Virus record (IMG/VR): IMGVR_UViG_3300047548_001271
Coordinates: 32,001-96,000 of that record
Origin: a virus
DNA: 64,000 nucleotides
Direction: 5' to 3' (one strand)
Shown here in pieces: positions 19,443-53,228 of this stretch; the stretch's first letter is position 1, and each line of letters begins with the position of its first letter. The notes beneath the pieces are model-generated. The model was given only the letters and a program-made list of their open reading frames with translations, searched no databases and was not told where the DNA came from. The position numbers and the translations under genes are program-made.

Positions 19443-21632
19443 GTGGATAAAGGACGAGATGAATTTTGTTGTTGCAACGGCTGTCAGTGTAAGCCAGAAC
19501 CCTCTTCATTGTCTGGAATAAATGGTTCTCCAGAGTATTTATCTAAACAAACTATATGGAGAAGGTTTTGTTGTTCATGCGTTCCAAAGCAAGCATGTGT
19601 AACAATAACTTATAAAGAAAATTCAAACACATATAACTATTTTTTATATTATCCACCATCTGCTCCTCCACAAGATTTAGATCAAGCGTTATATGTTCCA
19701 GAAAGTGGTCAATCTGTTTATATTGGTGATGGAGAAATAATAGATCTATCATTTCATTTTAAGATTAGAAATGGTTCTTGTTATTTTTCTTTAGCTAGTG
19801 AAAGTCTTGGAATAGATTTAGAAAATCAGTATTATGATAAAATAATAGACGCCGACACAAGAAAAGGGCCAGACTTTTTTTGTAAAACACTGTCTACTGA
19901 TGGTCTTGGATATACATTATTCCAGATTAATGATGATTTGCAAATAACAATCTCTGCAGCTAATCATGTTCCAATTCTAGGAAGAAAGAATTGTTATGAT
20001 CAATACGGAAACATTGTTTTTGATGAAAGTCCACTTCGCAATTTATGTTGCAATTGTTCTTGTATTTGTGAATGCATGTATCTTAACTACGGCGGAACGT
20101 TATTATTTATAGATGATAATAATGAAATAATTGACAATCAAGTAGCTATTCAATCAACCGCATGTTTAAATAATTATAATGATAATTGTTCAGTTAATTG
20201 GCTTTTTGATATGGGTGTAACATTAAGTATAAAAACAGATTATAATAAATGTCTGCTAGAGGATATGTTATCATGTTATAAGTTAGATGAGCAATATGGA
20301 GACAGAATTGATTCAATGGCTTCTTCTGGAGCATTAGCTAGTGGCGGTTTTAGTAGTAATGGAAGAACCCTATCTAGCATAAATAATGTTTCATATTCTT
20401 CTGGAAAAATTGGTAATTCGGCGTATTTTAATGGTAGTAACTATTTAATATGGCTAGATGAAGATCCAATAGATAGAATTAGATTAGAAGATTCTGACGG
20501 CGCAATATTATTATGGTGTAAACTAGATTCTATTAACAATGATATGTGCATACTATCTAAATATAGTGATCAAATTCAACTAAAGTTAGTAGATGATGTT
20601 TATACATATATTGATGTTGCTTCTTATGAAATTTCATTCGATGCTTCTGATAATAAGTTTATATTTAAAATATCTAATGGGTCTCAAGAATTTACAGTTT
20701 CATCAACATATAAAACTGGTATTGTCGCAAATACTTGGTATTCCATATATGCAGAAATAGATAATACAAATAAAAAAATAGCGATCAAAGTTGGTGATGA
20801 CCAATTTTATTCTTCATCTTTTAGTGGGTCTCTTCAAGATGTAAGACCCGCATTATATCTCGGTAGAAGTGGAAATTCAACAAATTATAATTATCTATCT
20901 GGCCAAATCGACCAAGTCTTAATATGGGCTAGAGTTTTAGGAAAATCAACAATCAAATGCTGTGATAATATAAGTGATTATAATTTAAGACTAAGCGAAG
21001 TTGATAAATTAATTAATAATAATTTTATTGCTGATACAAATGATATAATTACATGTAATTTTGATAAGAGGTGTTATGCCCATTTAGATGTTGGTGAGTT
21101 AGATATAACATCTACTCCACAACCAATACTTCTCGGTAGTGAGCTATTAAATACAAAATGTCCATCGCCAGAGCTAGTTTGGAATTTAACTCATGCGGCA
21201 GATGAGTTTATATCACAACCATATCCAGTTGTATTTACTTTTAGATGCAAAAACTGTGATAATATACCAACCGTCTATATTGATTCTTGTTGTTATACTG
21301 GAAGAACAAATTTTCCAACATCATTAAGAGCCGATATATCTACAGATTGCCCAGGTTGTCCATCAATAACAATAGGTTTGATATGGCAAGGATATAATTC
21401 TTATTATGAGGGTGTTGGATATTTATGTGGTCAGCAAATATTAGTTAGAGTCGCGTGCCCATTTAATGAAATATATATTAATTGGGGACTTTGTTTTGCT
21501 GGAAATATCAGTGCTGATTCATCTAATTGCGACCCCATTCTGATAACTGGTTCAGCACAATCTGCTGGATTAGGATGTTGTCCAAGCGACCCATTTTTAA
21601 ATCCTATATTAAGTATTACGATATATGAATAA
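19443..21632 (+). CDS. Cys-rich tail fibre-like protein with LamG/concanavalin-like domain
   Basis: About 40 Cys in CC/CxC clusters; central YKLDE...GKIGNSAYFNG...WY...GQIDQVLIWARVL LamG signature. Confidence 0.65.
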   Translation: MDKGRDEFCCCNGCQCKPEPSSLSGINGSPEYLSKQTIWRRFCCSCVPKQACVTITYKENSNTYNYFLYYPPSAPPQDLDQALYVPESGQSVYIGDGEIIDLSFHFKIRNGSCYFSLASESLGIDLENQYYDKIIDADTRKGPDFFCKTLSTDGLGYTLFQINDDLQITISAANHVPILGRKNCYDQYGNIVFDESPLRNLCCNCSCICECMYLNYGGTLLFIDDNNEIIDNQVAIQSTACLNNYNDNCSVNWLFDMGVTLSIKTDYNKCLLEDMLSCYKLDEQYGDRIDSMASSGALASGGFSSNGRTLSSINNVSYSSGKIGNSAYFNGSNYLIWLDEDPIDRIRLEDSDGAILLWCKLDSINNDMCILSKYSDQIQLKLVDDVYTYIDVASYEISFDASDNKFIFKISNGSQEFTVSSTYKTGIVANTWYSIYAEIDNTNKKIAIKVGDDQFYSSSFSGSLQDVRPALYLGRSGNSTNYNYLSGQIDQVLIWARVLGKSTIKCCDNISDYNLRLSEVDKLINNNFIADTNDIITCNFDKRCYAHLDVGELDITSTPQPILLGSELLNTKCPSPELVWNLTHAADEFISQPYPVVFTFRCKNCDNIPTVYIDSCCYTGRTNFPTSLRADISTDCPGCPSITIGLIWQGYNSYYEGVGYLCGQQILVRVACPFNEIYINWGLCFAGNISADSSNCDPILITGSAQSAGLGCCPSDPFLNPILSITIYE

Positions 21633-22842
21633 ATACTGCGAATGTACAGAACCAGGATTTTGTAATAGACATTTAATACAAAAAAATAATGTTCTATTTT
21701 CCATGTGCAAGGGCGAAGGAAAATGCGATGATTGTGGATTAAAATACTGGAAAGCTTGGGAAAATGGTATGCTAGGCGCCACTCCACCAAAAAAACCAGT
21801 CTTAAAACCAGACGGTTTTTGCCAAGACAAAAACGAAGGAAAGGAGCTTCCATGTGGATCATGCTCTCAATCTAAAAAAGAATTTTATTCTAAATCAAGC
21901 ATGGCTTATATAAAAAATGACAGATCTCTCACAACAGCGTTCAATATAAATGATGAGTTTTATAATAAGAGATTAGAGATTTGTAATAAATGTCCATTAT
22001 TAATAAATAATAAATGCCATGTAAAGGATGTTGAATATAACAAATTTGCCTCAAGAAAATATGAATCATGCCCTCTTGGTAAATGGTATCCGCTTGCAAG
22101 ACAAATAAGAAAATTTAACGGACATATAAAACGAAATTTATTAATGCATATAATGCCAATAAAAACAAATAATAACTGGAAAATGAATTTGGACCAAGTA
22201 GTATCTAAAATTGAATTATTTAATAATAAAAAGTTTTTAGCAATATGTTATGAAGATAAAATTGGTAGAAACAAATATCATACATTAAAACCAGAAGATG
22301 TTATCGCATATTGCGATAGTATAGGATTATATTTTGATGATATAAAAGTGTTTCAAAATAATCCAAAAATAAGAGAAGGTGTGTCTTTTCCATGGTTATT
22401 AGAAAGTATTCAAAGTGTTGATCCTAATGAAATTACTTTTTACTGTCATGGTAAGGGATGCACTCATGATGAAAATTCGATTACTGTTAAATGGGCTAAA
22501 GCTCAATATGATATATGCTTGAACAAAATTAAAAATGTAGAATTAGCACTTGAGCAATTTTGTATGGCTGGTGCGTTCAGAAGATTTGGCCAATTCACTA
22601 CACCCGGAAATAATAGATGGCACTATTCTGGAACCTTTTACTGGTTTAGAAATGACGAAGTATTCAAACCCGGTAAAGACTGGAGAAAATTAGATGATTT
22701 GTTCTTCTGTGTTGAATCATGGCCTGGGAGAATGTTCCATGCACACGAAACAGTTTCTATCTTGGGTGATGATTATGGTGATTTATACTCACAAGAAGAA
22801 TGGTTAAAAATTAACGAATTATTAGAATATTATTATTTATAA
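21625..22842 (+). CDS. Cys-rich N-terminal module fused to glycosyltransferase-like domain
   Basis: CECxxxGFCNRH and C..C...CPLGKW modules; C-terminal TFYCHGKG...HYSGTFYW...ESWPG segment resembling phage GT-like/rhamnan-synthesis-like proteins. Confidence 0.5.
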   Translation: MNKYCECTEPGFCNRHLIQKNNVLFSMCKGEGKCDDCGLKYWKAWENGMLGATPPKKPVLKPDGFCQDKNEGKELPCGSCSQSKKEFYSKSSMAYIKNDRSLTTAFNINDEFYNKRLEICNKCPLLINNKCHVKDVEYNKFASRKYESCPLGKWYPLARQIRKFNGHIKRNLLMHIMPIKTNNNWKMNLDQVVSKIELFNNKKFLAICYEDKIGRNKYHTLKPEDVIAYCDSIGLYFDDIKVFQNNPKIREGVSFPWLLESIQSVDPNEITFYCHGKGCTHDENSITVKWAKAQYDICLNKIKNVELALEQFCMAGAFRRFGQFTTPGNNRWHYSGTFYWFRNDEVFKPGKDWRKLDDLFFCVESWPGRMFHAHETVSILGDDYGDLYSQEEWLKINELLEYYYL

Positions 22843-23410: not shown

Positions 23411-23761
23411 TTACCATTTGCCTAGTGGACACTGAGACGATTCCCATTTAACCTTTAAGTCTAGGAAGCACCCACACTCAAAACAAGTTCTATCAGACTT
23501 ATTGAATCTATCACATGTTTCACATAAAGAAATTCTGCGATTAGATTCTTCATCTGTGCAGTTTTTTGCTCCGTTATACACGTGTTTAACTACAGCTTTT
23601 GAAAAATTGATAGCTTTTTCTACTAAGCCTTTTCCAGACTTTGATTCCCACATGTTAAAATATTTAATATTTGTGGAGCAAAGTCTATGCTCGGTATCAT
23701 TTTTATTTATTTTATGTCTATTGCAGTACCCACTAAGAGGGCATTCACATGGTGTGTTCAT
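23411..23761 (-). CDS. small Cys-rich protein (DUF6171-like), paralog of the 21625 N-terminus
   Basis: CECPLSGYCNRH; RISLCETC...CFECGC...CPLGKW. Confidence 0.75.
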   Translation of the reverse strand: MNTPCECPLSGYCNRHKINKNDTEHRLCSTNIKYFNMWESKSGKGLVEKAINFSKAVVKHVYNGAKNCTDEESNRRISLCETCDRFNKSDRTCFECGCFLDLKVKWESSQCPLGKW

Positions 23762-47509: not shown

Positions 47510-47537
47510 ATTATATGGTGTTTGAGATAGATGTCAA
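47510..47537 (-). promoter_or_regulatory. sigma70-type promoter for nrdB operon
   Basis: Minus strand TTGACA-N16-TATAAT in intergenic gap upstream of nrdB. Confidence 0.8.
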
Positions 47538-47547
47538 CGTGGAAAAA

Positions 47548-48069
47548 TTAAATAATGCCCATCACTGTGATACTATATGAAGCAACACCGGAGGACGTTC
47601 CAGACGTTGACGCAACATTGTGCAGTTGCAATCTATTAGCGGTTGATGTATTTATACCGCCATGCGGGTCATTGTATATGAAGCTAGAATATGGCTTTAT
47701 TAAAAGGTTTCCACTTCCACCATTAAAGAAAGATGTCGCCGCGTTTACGCCAGTAGCTCTTATGTTTAAATCGACACCGCTAGATGTTGATGTGTTTGAG
47801 ATTACAATGGATTTAATTGTCTTAAAAGAAGCGACACCTGTAACGCCAAAATCAACTGAATTATAAGATCCAAAATTAATTGATAGATTAGATCCACTTG
47901 GGATTACTCCTGTTGTTTTTACAACAGAATTAACTTGAAAATTTCCAGTTCCATATGTAAAATCACAAGCATTTTGTGAGTTGTCTGTTTTAGTTGATGC
48001 TTGACTTGTAGATGAGTCACTAATTGTGTATTGAATCTGAGCCAGTGATTTTGCCGATAATACTGTCAT
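47548..48069 (-). CDS. Ser/Thr/Gly-rich protein, probably virion-associated
   Basis: Beta-rich low-complexity composition with SG/TG motifs. Confidence 0.55.
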   Translation of the reverse strand: MTVLSAKSLAQIQYTISDSSTSQASTKTDNSQNACDFTYGTGNFQVNSVVKTTGVIPSGSNLSINFGSYNSVDFGVTGVASFKTIKSIVISNTSTSSGVDLNIRATGVNAATSFFNGGSGNLLIKPYSSFIYNDPHGGINTSTANRLQLHNVASTSGTSSGVASYSITVMGII

Positions 48070-48070
48070 A

Positions 48071-48640
48071 TTAATTACCTTGATTAAGTTTTAATATTTC
48101 TGAATAGATAGTTTCCGCAGTTTCATTGCCAAATCGTTTTACAATTTTATTCGACTGAGTATCAACTAAAAGGAAATATGGTATTGTGTCAAAATTGTAT
48201 TTTTCTGCAAGATCTGGTTCTTCATCAATATCATAAGATTCAACTTTAAATCCAGCAGATTCTAGTTTTGGTTTTTCAACTTGATCCCATGATTTGCATG
48301 GAGCACACCACTCAGCAGTAAATTTTACTAAATAATATTTTTGTTGTAGTGAAATAGGTTGAGGATCTGATGTTATTTTCTTGCATTTGCAATTATCACA
48401 TGGACAAGGTGTTTTGTGTCCATCTCCATGTGTTAGTTGTTTTGTCCCATTACACGCACACGCATTCCCATCATCAGGTTTGTCTGGTTGTACAGAGTCT
48501 TCTCCACTTTCTGAATTTACAATGAAGGCAACATATCCTTCAGACTCTTTTTCATCAATAGTTCTATTTGATTGTTGGGTAATAGTAGACGGTAGAAATA
48601 AAACAGCACCAACAAATAATAGTGGCAGAAGATCTTTCAT
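48071..48640 (-). CDS. exported thioredoxin-fold protein with Cys-rich linker
   Basis: N-terminal hydrophobic signal; CACNG...CPCDNCKC; FTAEWCAPC; TIP cis-Pro motif. Confidence 0.85.
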   Translation of the reverse strand: MKDLLPLLFVGAVLFLPSTITQQSNRTIDEKESEGYVAFIVNSESGEDSVQPDKPDDGNACACNGTKQLTHGDGHKTPCPCDNCKCKKITSDPQPISLQQKYYLVKFTAEWCAPCKSWDQVEKPKLESAGFKVESYDIDEEPDLAEKYNFDTIPYFLLVDTQSNKIVKRFGNETAETIYSEILKLNQGN

Positions 48641-48651
48641 TTTAAAATCCT

Positions 48652-48882
48652 TTAGTTTTCAGTTTTTTCTTCAACTACACACTCGCCTAAACAACAGCAG
48701 CAGCATGTTTTGCAACAACAATCATCACAAGTATTACATGTATTGCAAGACTCGCACGACTGATTGGAGTTTTTTGGCGCCGTAATATAAACAACAATAC
48801 CCAACAGAGTTAAGCCAATCGCGAATAAAATTGTTTTTTCAATTATTGATTCTATATTCATTTTAGAGCCCTTTAAAACCAA
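48652..48882 (-). CDS. small membrane protein with poly-Cys tail
   Basis: One TM segment then CESCNTCNTCDDCCCKTCCCCC. Confidence 0.55.
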   Translation of the reverse strand: MVLKGSKMNIESIIEKTILFAIGLTLLGIVVYITAPKNSNQSCESCNTCNTCDDCCCKTCCCCCLGECVVEEKTEN

Positions 48883-49084
48883 GAGTTTCAGGAAAATTCA
48901 AAGGTAAAAAACGCAAATAACAAGGTAAATAAAAATAAAATTCTATATAGAAGCGCAATACAATAAGAGTAGTAAATATAAGAAATTTTAAAAAATCAAT
49001 TACTTTATCTGAAAAAGTACGTTCATCAGGCATATACCAAAACAAAGCGACACCAATAAATAATATTGACAGACTATCATTCAT
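48863..49084 (-). CDS. small membrane protein
   Basis: Two hydrophobic segments; start placed at MNDSL. Confidence 0.5.
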   Translation of the reverse strand: MNDSLSILFIGVALFWYMPDERTFSDKVIDFLKFLIFTTLIVLRFYIEFYFYLPCYLRFLPLNFPETLGFKGL

Positions 49085-49085
49085 T

Positions 49086-51116
49086 TTAAAAAATTCTAGT
49101 ATTAAGTTTTTGAGGTTTGAAACCATTGTAACCAGAGAAAGCCCAACAATCACCGCTTTTTAGAATTCTATTTTCAATTTCTTGGGCATCAACCCAGAAT
49201 GAACCATCTGGTTGATTATGTCTTTTTGGTCCACTATTCCAGACTCCCCAAGAATTTTGAACTAACACTCCAGGTCTTTTATATTCGTCGTCAACGGCAA
49301 TAATGCACATTTGATGCGCCCAATTTCCTTCTGGTTTAGCAAAACCTTCAGAATCTCTCTTGTTAGAAAACCCTTGATTACTAGCAATCGTAACAGCATA
49401 ACCATTTACAATTAAATCTCTAACTTCGTTATATGTTTTTACTTGGGACACAGTTAATACACTATGTTCCTTAGCTATTGGTATTAATTCTGCTGGAACA
49501 CCAACACTTGGCATTCCCCAAGATTTTGCTCGCTGTGCATCATATTTTGATAAATCAATATTTCCATATTTCTGTCTTGCTAAAGCCCCGAATTTACTAA
49601 CATATTCTGCGGCCCACGCACCTAACGATCCATCGTCAGATCCGATTTGCCCCTTGCCAATTTGTACTCTGCTGCCAGCGTAAATATCCTCAGTAGCTGT
49701 CTCAGCAACCCACTCCTCAAACTCTTTATTAAGGAAGATATCTACGGCTTTAATAATATCTACTGCATATGCGGCTCCCATTGATACACAATTGTGAATT
49801 CCATATCCATTGCATATAAACGAATGATCTTCTTCTACTCCTATACAATATACGTATTCAGTTTCAGGTTCAACAATTTCTATTTTACATATTTTTGCAG
49901 CCTTACCATACTTAGTAACTTGCTTTTGGTTTAATTTTAATCCAATCGCTTGTTGTGTTAATACATCTACACCACAGTTAAGATTTAGTGAAAAAGATTC
50001 TTTGCTTTGTTTATACGCTTTTCTTTTTTGAATAGAACAATTTATATTAATTGAGTTTGCTATTTGAAAAAAATCATATATTAAATTTTCTGAAACAGAA
50101 ACTCCAATTTGATTATTATATCCATCACCATCCATCCATCCAGATAAAATCTGTAGTTTATTTTGTTCTGTTGTTATGAGTAAATCTTTATTTAATTTTT
50201 TGTTGTAAACATTACCAGAACATAATTTCTTAAATAGAGAACTGATAAGTAAATTTTGAACTCTTACATATATTATAGATGGTTTTGAAGGAACTGACGT
50301 TATGATGGCGTCAAAATCAAAAACGTCTTTAATATACGATTTTATCTTATTTGCTAACACGACCTCTTTAGAAGATAAGTTAAAGGTTATTCTTCCATTA
50401 TCAATACCGCCCTCTGCCGCATAAATCCCAATTAACCAGCAAAGCTTTTCATCTAAATCAATAAACCTGTTTATTTCTTTACTTGATCCTTTTACTCTTA
50501 TTTTATTAAAAAAAACAGGTTGTGTTCTTAATTTTTTAAAATCAGATTCGCTTGTTATAGATTCACCACATAAATCTTTTAAGTCGTATTTATATTTATT
50601 AATTGAAGGAAGTTTTGGTAATAGAATATAGTCGCCTTCATTTAAAGCGACTATAGGCTTCCATTCTATTTTAGATTTGTCTCCTGATTTACCCCTTCCA
50701 ACATTTGGAAGATACATATATAAATGATCTGGAGTTGACTCTATTGGTTTTTTATAGCCAGAAACGTGTATTCTTACCATGCTTTTATTGTATGGTTTTT
50801 TTATATAGTCTATAACTCTTCTAATGTTTCCATAAGGACTTATTACATATTCTCCTATCTTTATATCTTTTATTTGTTTTTCAGACCCATCCGCCATTCG
50901 AACCATAGCAGATGGATTTTGACAGTCGCCAATACCTTGATTCCTATTAGGAAATGAACCAGCAACTTTCTCTACAATCTGATATAGTAATGCTTTTTTA
51001 CCAGCACCGCTATCCTTAATTGGAGCCCAAACATCATTAAAAACCGGGAAAGGTAATCTATTCATTACCTTTTCAACTAAGTTTGGTTTATTTACCCATC
51101 CAAATTTATTACTCAT
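49086..51116 (-). CDS. papain-like (C1) cysteine peptidase containing an intein
   Basis: After removing the intein: NQGIGD-CVSMG (oxyanion Q, catalytic C), WAHQM (H), VQNSWG (N). Confidence 0.85.
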   Translation of the reverse strand: MSNKFGWVNKPNLVEKVMNRLPFPVFNDVWAPIKDSGAGKKALLYQIVEKVAGSFPNRNQGIGDCQNPSAMVRMADGSEKQIKDIKIGEYVISPYGNIRRVIDYIKKPYNKSMVRIHVSGYKKPIESTPDHLYMYLPNVGRGKSGDKSKIEWKPIVALNEGDYILLPKLPSINKYKYDLKDLCGESITSESDFKKLRTQPVFFNKIRVKGSSKEINRFIDLDEKLCWLIGIYAAEGGIDNGRITFNLSSKEVVLANKIKSYIKDVFDFDAIITSVPSKPSIIYVRVQNLLISSLFKKLCSGNVYNKKLNKDLLITTEQNKLQILSGWMDGDGYNNQIGVSVSENLIYDFFQIANSININCSIQKRKAYKQSKESFSLNLNCGVDVLTQQAIGLKLNQKQVTKYGKAAKICKIEIVEPETEYVYCIGVEEDHSFICNGYGIHNCVSMGAAYAVDIIKAVDIFLNKEFEEWVAETATEDIYAGSRVQIGKGQIGSDDGSLGAWAAEYVSKFGALARQKYGNIDLSKYDAQRAKSWGMPSVGVPAELIPIAKEHSVLTVSQVKTYNEVRDLIVNGYAVTIASNQGFSNKRDSEGFAKPEGNWAHQMCIIAVDDEYKRPGVLVQNSWGVWNSGPKRHNQPDGSFWVDAQEIENRILKSGDCWAFSGYNGFKPQKLNTRIF
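49791..50924 (-). mobile_element. intein with LAGLIDADG homing endonuclease (378 aa)
   Basis: Starts at Cys (CQNPSAMVRMADG), block B STPDH, WLIGIYAAEG and LSGWMDGDG motifs, ends VYCIGVEEDHSFICNGYGIHN followed by Cys+1. Confidence 0.92.
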
Positions 51117-51540
51117 ATTTTATTGCCATATAAATAGAGTTGAATATGTTATATAACCAAGTTCTGTCTCGTTGTGTTGACAGCTCTCTAGGCTCGTCAT
51201 AACCTTCTTCTATTAGATAATCTGAGATTGCATCCGTAAATCTAGGATATTTATCAACCTCCCACATATATGAGGATTGAACTTTTAATAGTATAGGATA
51301 GAAGTCAGAGCTTTTATTTAATTTTTTTGCGTTCTTAATATAGAGTGCTGAACCGGCTATCTGCTTATAAAAAAGGTCTTGATCTTCTTTATCTAGCTTC
51401 TTAAATTCTACTTGTATTTTTCTTAAAGAACTTGTTAATTCAAAATCTTCATTTTCAGAAGTGTTGTCAACTCTATCATCAACTCCAGGTCGATTACAGC
51501 CAACACAAAATAAAATAGCAAGTATAAATACAAACCTCAT
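51109..51540 (-). CDS. lipoprotein
   Basis: MRFVFILAILFCVGC lipobox-type signal. Confidence 0.75.
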   Translation of the reverse strand: MRFVFILAILFCVGCNRPGVDDRVDNTSENEDFELTSSLRKIQVEFKKLDKEDQDLFYKQIAGSALYIKNAKKLNKSSDFYPILLKVQSSYMWEVDKYPRFTDAISDYLIEEGYDEPRELSTQRDRTWLYNIFNSIYMAIKYE

Positions 51541-51547
51541 AAAATCC

Positions 51548-51937
51548 TCATCTTTTTACTATTAATATGTCAACTAATTTCCTAATGATTTCAGTAAGTT
51601 CTTCAGAATTCAACTCTTTGTTTTTATCTCTTAAAAACTCAATAACATTGTATTTATTTATTAAAATACCACCATCTGGTGAATTATCTTCTTTGTCTGT
51701 TTTCTCTTGGTCAACAAAGAAATAATCAAATTCTTTTTCTTTAGTTGAATTGTTATTTACTAATTTTATAATTGTAGATAGATCAAATCCAGAAGCTAAA
51801 TAATAGATTCCACAAGCAACACAAACACCGATTTTAATCCAGAAGTTGTTGTCCGCTACAAAATCTGGATTATTATACCAATAATAATACTGATAGGCAG
51901 AATATCCAAAAAGAGGTATAGAAAGAGCGCTTTTCAT
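51548..51937 (-). CDS. membrane protein
   Basis: Two N-terminal hydrophobic segments, charged C-terminus. Confidence 0.65.
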   Translation of the reverse strand: MKSALSIPLFGYSAYQYYYWYNNPDFVADNNFWIKIGVCVACGIYYLASGFDLSTIIKLVNNNSTKEKEFDYFFVDQEKTDKEDNSPDGGILINKYNVIEFLRDKNKELNSEELTEIIRKLVDILIVKR

Positions 51938-51946
51938 AAGTCACCA

Positions 51947-52156
51947 TTATTCTTTTGTGTTATCTTTTACCCATGTTATTACAGATTCTAATAGTGTAGA
52001 TATAACTGGAACAACTAGTGGAGCCATTGGCCCTAGATCTAATACTGATAATTTTGTTGAAATAAATGTTAATCCAGCGGCAAGAGAAACCAAGACCGCA
52101 TTTTTAATTACTTTGTTAACTTCTTCTTTATTTACTGATAAATTTTTCGATCCCAT
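51947..52156 (-). CDS. holin-like small membrane protein
   Basis: 69 aa, two TM segments, charged ends (WVKDNTKE). Confidence 0.55.
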   Translation of the reverse strand: MGSKNLSVNKEEVNKVIKNAVLVSLAAGLTFISTKLSVLDLGPMAPLVVPVISTLLESVITWVKDNTKE

Positions 52157-52157
52157 C

Positions 52158-52493
52158 TTATTTATCCCTTTCTAATTTATTAAGTAATCTATCTAAGATA
52201 TCGGCTATTCGTTTTTGGTCGTGAACAATTTGTTGTAATGTTCTTTGTAAATCTCGTTGAATTTCAATAAATGTTCTTGGCGTGTAAACGAGAGGCGTTC
52301 CATCTTGATCAACTCTCATATGAACTTCATGTATTTCTTTTAAACACGCTCTTTCTTCATCTGTTAATATTGATTGTTTTGGTATCGCCTTGCTTAGAAG
52401 CATTTCTATAATTTTAGATAATGCTACAACAACTGCGACTATTGCAGCAAGGACGGGTGCATCGAACAATGACTCTGGCATATCATTCTCCAA
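52158..52493 (-). CDS. single-TM protein with coiled-coil tail (holin/antiholin-like)
   Basis: VLAAIVAVVVAL TM segment; C-terminal heptads. Confidence 0.5.
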   Translation of the reverse strand: MENDMPESLFDAPVLAAIVAVVVALSKIIEMLLSKAIPKQSILTDEERACLKEIHEVHMRVDQDGTPLVYTPRTFIEIQRDLQRTLQQIVHDQKRIADILDRLLNKLERDK

Positions 52494-52521: not shown

Positions 52522-53145
52522 TTATAATGTTGCTGGTTTATAATCGTCTTGTTTTGGAGCTAATGATCCATACATATATACAAACTCACCAGGTATTGAT
52601 TTGTAAGTGACATAAATAGCTTGATCGTTTATGCTTCCACCTACGCCATTTTGATATGTAACTTTATTTGTGCTTGGAGCAGTAGACCAGTTTGTTCTTT
52701 GACCAGAAATGCCGGTATGTCTAAAATATCCACTTCTGAACGCTGTATTAGTTTGAGCACCAACAGATTTAGTTGCAATATTTCTTCTAACTCTGTTTTG
52801 TTCGTTTCCAACAATTCTTAATGAGTTATTAGCTGATCCATTTATCATGGTAGCCATTCCTCTTGCTAAAAATTGAGATGGTATTTGCTTATAAGCAAAC
52901 GTGCCAGATGTTAATGCTTTAGTTGTGCTGTATGTATGACCAGCACCGGATAATTCAACCATAACACTAGATCTAACTGCCGCACCATCCATTGCAGTGT
53001 CTCTAATTGTTAAAATTTTAGTAATTGGACTTTTTGTAGTAGTAACAGTTGTACTAGTTAATCCAAGTGCAACCCCTCCGATTTTTTCGGTTGGAGCGAC
53101 AGTGCCGGTTGTGCTGATAACAATTCCAGTTGGTAACATAGCCAT
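52522..53145 (-). CDS. Thr/Ser/Gly-rich protein, probably virion-associated
   Basis: GGAG RBS; composition; preceded by candidate late promoter. Confidence 0.55.
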   Translation of the reverse strand: MAMLPTGIVISTTGTVAPTEKIGGVALGLTSTTVTTTKSPITKILTIRDTAMDGAAVRSSVMVELSGAGHTYSTTKALTSGTFAYKQIPSQFLARGMATMINGSANNSLRIVGNEQNRVRRNIATKSVGAQTNTAFRSGYFRHTGISGQRTNWSTAPSTNKVTYQNGVGGSINDQAIYVTYKSIPGEFVYMYGSLAPKQDDYKPATL

Positions 53146-53228
53146 ATTAAAATCTCCAATTTATCACATTATATTCCTAATTTTCCTAGTATTTTTATTA
53201 GTCCATTCCTATAAATATATACTCCAGC

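Follow-up and report, generated by a model that had tools for sequence, protein, structure and literature searches.

A papain-fold cysteine peptidase and an exported thioredoxin in a candidate lysis cassette of uncultured aquatic siphophages

Papain-superfamily cysteine peptidases have been described as lytic enzymes encoded beside a holin (PMC3314691, PMC4982276, PMC10318531), and papain-family domains are recognized in mycobacteriophage LysA proteins (the N5 and N4 domains; PMC3314691) and in gp29 of Gordonia phage BetterKatz (PMC4982276). These enzymes, together with the CHAP and NlpC/P60 lysins, belong to C39-like, NlpC/P60 or CHAP branches and usually work alongside a wall-binding domain and a domain of glycosidase or amidase type, in phages of monoderm or mycolate hosts. 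We examine here a 64,000-nucleotide stretch of a viral genome (positions 32,001 to 96,000 of IMG/VR record IMGVR_UViG_3300047548_001271), referred to throughout as the window, in which a cassette running from gene g207 to gene g173 encodes, by contrast, a stand-alone C1-like cysteine peptidase together with an exported thioredoxin and several small membrane proteins. The signal types in this phage cassette are those of a diderm host, unlike those of the LysA/BetterKatz-type lysins, and no precedent cited above combines a C1-like enzyme that stands alone with a redox partner in a cassette of diderm type. On balance, we read g207–g173 as a non-canonical, envelope-directed lysis cassette with the papain-fold peptidase as its enzyme, a reading for which the fold and catalytic residues of the enzyme, the conservation of the cassette, the existence of extracytoplasmic versions of the enzyme and of versions fused to thioredoxin, and the lack of known lysin families in a relative of this phage are shown.

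The eight open reading frames (ORFs) of positions 48071-52493 all lie on the minus strand and are separated by gaps, or joined by overlaps, of a few bases, just as an earlier reading made from the DNA letters alone (the sequence-only reading) had described them. Three features are central to the argument:

49086..51116, minus strand: papain (C1)-like cysteine peptidase precursor of 676 amino acids (aa), without an export signal (motifs, profile and AlphaFold2 (AF2) model)
49791..50924, minus strand: intein of 378 aa with Hint and LAGLIDADG parts, immediately before the catalytic Cys (Pfam and comparison with intein-less homologs)
48071..48640, minus strand: Trx189, a signal or anchor followed by a Cys-rich HGDGHKT module and a thioredoxin domain with the active site WCAPC (PF00085)

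The two exteins of the peptidase (N-extein, 50925-51116; C-extein, 49089-49790) are 63-77% identical to intein-less homologs of ~300 aa. C67 and H225 are invariant across a set of 74 diverse homologs, in which Q62, and S246 and W247 of an N-S-W-G motif, are at least 90% conserved; N245 of the same motif is nearly invariant in a closer set, and the window residues read Q...GD/C, the slash marking the intein junction. When the family profile was compared with the PDB, xylellain (3OIS) was matched at 4e-6, followed by cathepsins, over the His/Asn region, and the alignment placed the family His and N-S-W-G on those of xylellain and cathepsin K. An AF2 model of the intein-less homolog P0001 (77% identical; predicted local distance difference test score, pLDDT, 94.5; predicted template-modelling score, pTM, 0.93) was used in a Foldseek search, which returned xylellain (2.6e-13), procathepsin B (template-modelling score up to 0.64) and other C1A enzymes. 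Its structural neighbours in BFVD include C1-like proteins of uncultured tailed phages, some of them annotated as peptidoglycan-binding or as muramidase.

The window peptidase thus has the fold, the Gln/Cys/His/Asn set and the N-S-W-G motif of xylellain and the cathepsin B-type C1A enzymes; the best structural matches are to C1A zymogen forms, and the phage enzyme likewise has ~60 residues before its catalytic Cys. It departs from xylellain and cathepsin B in being only 13-19% identical to them, in falling below the Pfam Peptidase_C1 threshold, in lacking a classical prodomain, and in being phage-borne, situated in a membrane-protein cassette and often split by an intein. Pfam Peptidase_C1 (PF00112) gave no match and PF03051 reached only E 0.07-0.11, below its cut-off. 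Because the papain fold and motifs are present but the Pfam C1 models are not reached, we assign these predicted peptidases to a distant, separate family inside the papain fold. No hydrophobic segment is found in the N-extein by hydropathy, so an N-terminal transmembrane (TM) segment of the signal-anchor-release (SAR) type is absent from the window copy; fold, motifs and hydropathy therefore agree with the original description of a papain-like protease lacking a signal peptide.

The intein occupies residues 65-442 of the 676-aa precursor. Its match to the Pfam Intein_splicing model is narrow (35.9 bits against a cut-off of 35.8), and Hom_end_hint and LAGLIDADG_3 are matched as well; it begins with Cys and ends with His-Asn, the +1 residue being the Cys that is also the catalytic Cys of the peptidase, and its removal restores collinearity with hundreds of the ~300-aa homologs. 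Intein-sized insertions occur in 26 of 150 family representatives (P0121-P0270), at three hot spots corresponding to the Cys, His and Asn motifs. Some representatives carry two insertions (P0146, which is 1207 aa long, P0206 and P0257), and P0194 combines an intein with a twin-arginine translocation (Tat) signal.

The thioredoxin domain of Trx189 matches PF00085 at E 7e-11 (42.5 bits against a cut-off of 23.5), and hydropathy in a 19-residue window, the method applied to the eight ORFs, places an N-terminal hydrophobic segment at residues 4-22, which bears out the earlier description of a signal-bearing WCAPC thioredoxin. In the relatives the homologs of Trx189 (cluster c1) lie directly downstream of the peptidase, with no gene between. 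Members of c1 have a signal peptide or a lipobox (the latter in L022 and L040), and the constant part of the family is the Cys-rich module, consisting of a Cys pair, G-T, HGDGHKT and Cys-Pro and seen in the window, L004, L005, L006, L022 and L040. This module has no family match and is retained where the thioredoxin domain is lost; an atlas search with the N-terminal module of Trx189 gave no usable match.

In the distant homolog P0326 a single ORF runs from a TM anchor through the peptidase and two TM segments to a thioredoxin domain with WCEPC; this domain can be aligned with the active site of the window thioredoxin at E 2e-6 and has thioredoxins as its only PDB matches. P0327 is a similar fusion with CPAC, and P0325 is also similar. 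When long homologs were scanned for wall-binding fusions, only intein forms and these three TM/thioredoxin-type fusions were seen, and no peptidoglycan-binding domain. Because the two proteins are adjacent in relatives and joined in distant peptidase-TM-thioredoxin fusions, peptidase and thioredoxin are, on this comparative evidence, functionally linked, as the sequence-only reading had supposed of its protease and disulfide reductase, and the link to a thioredoxin fold recurs independently. Like TlpA, ResA and CcmG/DsbE, Trx189 combines an N-terminal anchor or signal with a periplasm-facing WCxxC thioredoxin fold; it differs from them in being phage-encoded, in its extra Cys-rich HGDGHKT module and in being paired with a cysteine peptidase.

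The window peptidase has no export signal, and other members of its family do. The Planctomycetota copies, and several gene-called representatives, have an N-terminal Gly/Ala/Ser/Thr-rich TM segment before the conserved start, and SAR-like N-terminal TM domains are present in the distant homologs L033, L034, P0325 and P0327. Classical Tat signals are found in eight representatives (P0181, P0184, P0194, P0200, P0208, P0223, P0230 and P0241); Tat forms also occur on viral contigs (L051:2817-3815 and L052:1589-2617), beside a small two-TM protein and exported or TM proteins. Since distant members carry TM anchors, Tat signals and TM-thioredoxin fusions, these predicted signals show the family to act outside the cytoplasm. 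The enzyme was also considered as a prohead protease and rejected as such, given where its gene lies and that homologs carry export signals.

A division into soluble and membrane-tethered forms is likewise seen in known endolysin families. The SAR endolysins (P1 Lyz and phage 21 R) with their pinholins provide a close parallel, in that there too soluble and N-terminally tethered forms exist and a small two-TM protein is a neighbour; as in the thiol-activated SAR endolysins, the redox state of the catalytic Cys would be managed in the periplasm. P1 Lyz and phage 21 R are muramidases whose own cysteines isomerise, whereas the peptidase described here has a separate or fused thioredoxin and, in the window copy, no SAR domain.

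The remaining genes of the eight-ORF region encode small membrane or exported proteins:

52158..52493, minus strand: cc111, a protein that crosses the membrane once and whose C-terminal part is helical and charged (strong TM, residues 14-32)
51947..52156, minus strand: tm69, a small holin-like two-TM protein with charged ends (two TM segments)
51548..51937, minus strand: tm129, a membrane protein that has a helical domain at its C-terminus and an acidic linker (a single clear hydrophobic stretch, residues 33-51)
51109..51540, minus strand: lipo143, an exported partner with a conserved helical domain of ~100 aa (signal and lipobox Cys15)
48863..49084, minus strand: tm73, a small membrane ORF (hydropathy; likely true start the ATG at 49084)
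48652..48882, minus strand: polyC, an ORF with one TM segment and thirteen cysteines in its tail (13 Cys in 69-76 aa)

In IMG/VR relatives and in mis-binned contigs of metagenome-assembled genomes the gene order is g207-like gene, TM-anchored protein, tm69, two-TM protein, lipo143 family, peptidase and c1, and the core of tm69, two-TM protein, exported c4, peptidase and exported c1 is retained in L001-L009, L011 and L022. (The alignment of 74 sequences is too diverse for a locus scan.) The cluster suspected at the outset, a protease among holin-like membrane proteins, is therefore a conserved one, with tm69, tm129 and cc111 near the enzyme and conserved beside it; two-TM proteins also adjoin the Tat and SAR-like forms of the peptidase. 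Homologs of tm69 (39-47% identical) occupy the same position in the relatives, and its two TM segments, like the single one of cc111, agree with the first description; it matched no Pfam or PHROG family. The second protein originally credited with two TM segments, tm129, has only one clear stretch in the window, although its positional counterpart in the relatives (c25) has two, together with a comparable motif at the C-terminus. The position of cc111 is taken in the relatives by a TM-anchored protein (cluster c6, e.g. L004:8233-8799) with weak, sub-threshold PAS matches, which may be a sensor within the cassette; in cc111 itself the acidic N-terminus and the Lys-rich stretch after the TM segment suggest an N-out/C-in topology.

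The claim that lipo143 is a lipoprotein holds for the window, where signal and lipobox Cys15 are evident, and for the four nearest homologs (P0271-P0274), which retain the lipobox Cys; it does not extend to more distant homologs, from which the lipobox is lost, and the family members in L001, L004, L005 and L006 have a plain signal or anchor. A gene of this family lies immediately upstream of the peptidase in 10 loci. An AF2 model of lipo143 (pLDDT 74) is a generic helical bundle, and a fold search with it gave no informative match (best Z 5.9). As for the two small membrane ORFs tm73 and polyC, both are present as first noted, and by tblastn neither has a counterpart in any related locus.

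Like a lambda-type lysis cassette, the locus is a tight, co-oriented group in which an enzyme and a lipoprotein accompany small membrane proteins, and the location of prophage copies upstream of terminase adds to the likeness. It differs in having no known holin or endolysin family and in the charges of cc111, which suggest that its C-terminal domain is cytoplasmic; in addition, lipo143 has no conserved lipobox and is not encoded next to cc111. A spanin pair of cc111 and lipo143 was considered and found unsupported, on the grounds of the C-in charges, a lipobox confined to the nearest relatives, the non-adjacent genes and the PAS-like counterpart of cc111.

Planctomycete prophages have a comparable arrangement of a two-TM protein, an exported protein with PKD, Pro/Thr-linker and helical parts, the peptidase and TM proteins, located among phage marker genes 2-3 kb upstream of the gene for the terminase large subunit; in the prophage L029 the exported partner carries a lipobox. 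From the comparisons reported below, the aquatic and planctomycete two-TM proteins and exported partners appear to be positional analogues only.

The eight ORFs form part of a longer unit, g207 to g173 (53226-47548, minus strand), whose outer features are:

53218..53226, minus strand: promoter-like element TGGAGTATA, 73 nt upstream of the g207 start
52522..53145, minus strand: g207, first gene of the unit, conserved and without TM segments (homologs, cluster c3, in the same position in 10 loci)
47548..48069, minus strand: g173, last gene of the unit, Ser/Thr/Gly-rich (from the ORF list)
47510..47537, minus strand: sigma-70 consensus promoter (12/12 match) that starts the nrdB-nrdA unit and forms the downstream boundary of the cassette

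The element TGGAGTATA was checked as a motif within this window and in G001 (a relative introduced below). Two of its three copies in the window are intergenic, the intergenic share of the window being ~1.4%, and the second of these, at 640, stands at the head of the tail operon. It occurs at the identical distance upstream of the g207 homolog in L002, L004 and G001, with variants in L006 and L022. The sigma-70 promoter (TTGACA, 16 nt, TATAAT) falls within the 84-nt gap between g173 and nrdB. Since TGGAGTATA is common to the tail operon and positionally conserved and a sigma-70 promoter follows the unit, the cassette is, judged by these motifs, a transcription unit of its own embedded in the replication arm, and it is probably expressed late. 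Neither g207 nor g173 matched a Pfam or PHROG family; the two were compared as possible paralogs and are unrelated.

No muramidase or amidase was found by Pfam among the scanned window ORFs of at least 140 aa, in agreement with the sequence-only reading, and no gene of the cassette belongs to a known peptidoglycan-hydrolase Pfam family. The search for a canonical endolysin was extended to the IMG/VR contig G001, which is syntenic with the window, 162,690 bp long and 98% complete (CheckV): a six-frame search with 15 peptidoglycan-hydrolase Pfam families gave no match there or in G002, and CHAP and NlpC/P60 are absent from G001. A PHROG 'endolysin' match in the tape measure protein was rejected as a lysin: the stretch concerned is hydrophobic and rich in Gly, and no lytic domain in the PDB matches it. 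In three cultured planctomycete carriers (G004, G007 and G008, the genomes of L027, L034 and L029, respectively) no match to Phage_lysozyme or SLT was found anywhere at E 0.01 or below, and the sole Amidase_2 match lies on another contig than the peptidase.

An exhaustive search places the peptidase family at 1642 clusters at 50% identity. Its atlas neighbours are almost all viral, and tblastn with an intein-less homolog and blastn with the DNA of the region found no match among 50,697 GenBank phages; the family is thus, as far as these searches show, very large and almost wholly uncultured. A scan of GTDB gave 31 loci, 16 of the 31 in Planctomycetota (the loci named for that phylum are L012-L015, L017, L018, L021, L027, L029-L031, L033-L037 and L041), and these include the cultured Kolteria novifilia Pan216, Planctomicrobium sp. 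SH661 and Thalassoglobus neptunius KOR42. Even samples of genomes beyond the seed genomes contained the family in 4 of 300 Planctomycetota, 1 of 300 Bacteroidota and 0 of 300 Pseudomonadota; overall it occurs also in Bacteroidota, Pseudomonadota, Acidobacteriota and many low-G+C aquatic phages. The copies in Mucilaginibacter and Balneolaceae have as neighbours not phage genes but glycosyltransferases (GT87 and GT2) or a short-chain dehydrogenase.

The source phage itself is a siphophage from freshwater metagenomes, with 33% G+C and a tape measure protein of 3259 aa; its genome is likely 157,442 bp, the size of the contig that encodes P0287, the 676-aa precursor of the window itself. We note that two of its distal tail proteins are rich in Cys (19443-21632, 41 Cys in 729 aa, with Laminin_G_3; 21625-22842, 20 Cys in 405 aa), as is a 116-aa ORF at 23411-23761 (9.5% Cys), and that the tape measure protein contains none.

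If the cassette does act in lysis, the peptidase would be made as an inert precursor, because the intein sits on the catalytic Cys, and after splicing would remain in the cytoplasm until tm69, tm129 and perhaps cc111 permeabilise the inner membrane in the manner of holins. Once released it could cut peptide bonds of the envelope, candidate substrates being the stem or cross-link peptides of peptidoglycan or proteins that tie outer layers to the wall. The exported thioredoxin would keep the catalytic thiol reduced, or make it so, in an oxidising periplasm, and the exported lipo143 would be a periplasmic partner. The late timing, the holin function, the substrate and the redox role are what we infer for the cassette.

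Several observations weigh against a lysis function. The peptidase is 63-77% identical among relatives and its neighbours 30-50%, and an enzyme more conserved than its neighbours is unusual for endolysins. The membrane proteins of the cassette match no holin family in Pfam or PHROGs, and to our knowledge C1-family peptidases do not cut peptidoglycan. The cassette sits within the arm for replication and nucleotide metabolism, and the thioredoxin domain is missing from c1 in L006-L011 and L040. No homology support was obtained with hhalign either between the lipo143 family and the planctomycete exported partner (c20) or between the tm69 family and the planctomycete two-TM protein. Homologs in Mucilaginibacter and Balneolaceae (L019:4763-8900, L020:4666-8912 and L016) lie among cellular genes, so the peptidase family has cellular members too. 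Finally, the absence of a lysin comes from a family search of a relative rather than of this genome, and a cryptic lysin could escape such a search; of the families used, PF00182 and PF05838 matched no control genome and their negatives carry little weight.

Some of these points would suit a cassette for envelope remodelling or exclusion, in which surface or periplasmic proteins are modified, for instance by destroying receptors against superinfection or against the loss of progeny on debris. The extracytoplasmic nature of the components, the high conservation of the peptidase, the distance of the cassette from the structural arm and the cellular homologs beside envelope glycosyltransferases all fit this function. 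We nevertheless consider it unlikely: the window peptidase, having no export signal, would need the membrane to be permeabilised to reach the envelope, in prophages the cassette precedes terminase and is accompanied by TM proteins, and no other lysin was found with the 15 families in the relative.

The sequence-only reading had proposed that protease and disulfide reductase act jointly to take apart a proteinaceous envelope held by disulfide links, of the kind described for Planctomycetes. Its link to Planctomycetes is borne out in part, since homologs are over-represented in Planctomycetota genomes and prophages, and the real link of peptidase to thioredoxin and the lack of SLT or Phage_lysozyme matches in the three cultured carriers also agree with it. 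The proposed substrate, however, is unsupported and depends on a superseded model of the wall, peptidoglycan having reportedly been found in Planctomycetes (Jeske 2015; van Teeseling 2015). The family extends to Bacteroidota, Pseudomonadota, Acidobacteriota and low-G+C aquatic phages, this phage comes from freshwater and has 33% G+C, the planctomycete prophage cassettes were seen without a thioredoxin neighbour, and the c1 proteins of seven loci noted above lack the thioredoxin domain; all of this makes the proposal improbable.

We think it equally doubtful that the peptidase is a cytoplasmic protease for host takeover or processing, with unrelated membrane and exported neighbours and a thioredoxin that serves the adjacent ribonucleotide reductase. 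The window copy does lack a signal peptide, the thioredoxin gene is ~600 bp from nrdB, and PHROG 22 is classed under nucleotide metabolism; but Tat signals or TM anchors are present on distant homologs of the peptidase, members of the thioredoxin family bear a signal peptide or a lipobox and occur fused to the peptidase with TM segments in between, the sigma-70 promoter separates the cassette from the nrd genes, and the gene order is conserved. Maturation or oxidative folding of the Cys-rich distal tail proteins, the alternative offered originally, has in its favour the high Cys content of two such proteins and the TGGAGTATA promoter motif shared with the tail operon, but is very improbable: it is topologically unlikely, since the thioredoxin family and lipo143 are exported while tails assemble in the cytoplasm, and the planctomycete and Tat-type cassettes have the peptidase without a thioredoxin.

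Beyond the lysis function that we favour for this cassette, a wider proposal can be put forward tentatively, as plausible though somewhat short of probable: that the family represents a new class of phage lysis enzyme, in which a peptidase of C1 papain fold stands in for the endolysin of glycosidase or amidase type, both in a large group of aquatic siphophages without cultured members and in prophages that Planctomycetes and other diderms carry, reaches the envelope by way of a holin, a SAR-like anchor or a Tat signal, and is kept active by a dedicated, sometimes fused, thioredoxin, with an intein at the catalytic Cys adding a further control in the phage described here.

Little is known of how phages lyse hosts outside the model groups, among them Planctomycetes and many bacteria of fresh and marine waters, and a visible endolysin is missing from many such genomes. 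If the peptidase is a lytic enzyme, it would fill this gap for a very large group of uncultured phages (the 1642 clusters), and a papain-type, redox-assisted enzyme would join the known repertoire of lysins. We know of no Tat-exported phage lysis enzyme, and the Tat-bearing members would then show that such an enzyme can take this route; the prophages of K. novifilia Pan216, Planctomicrobium sp. SH661 and T. neptunius KOR42 would provide cultured test systems. Should the enzyme prove not to be lytic, the conserved pairing of peptidase and thioredoxin would still mark an unexplained, envelope-directed function of these phages.

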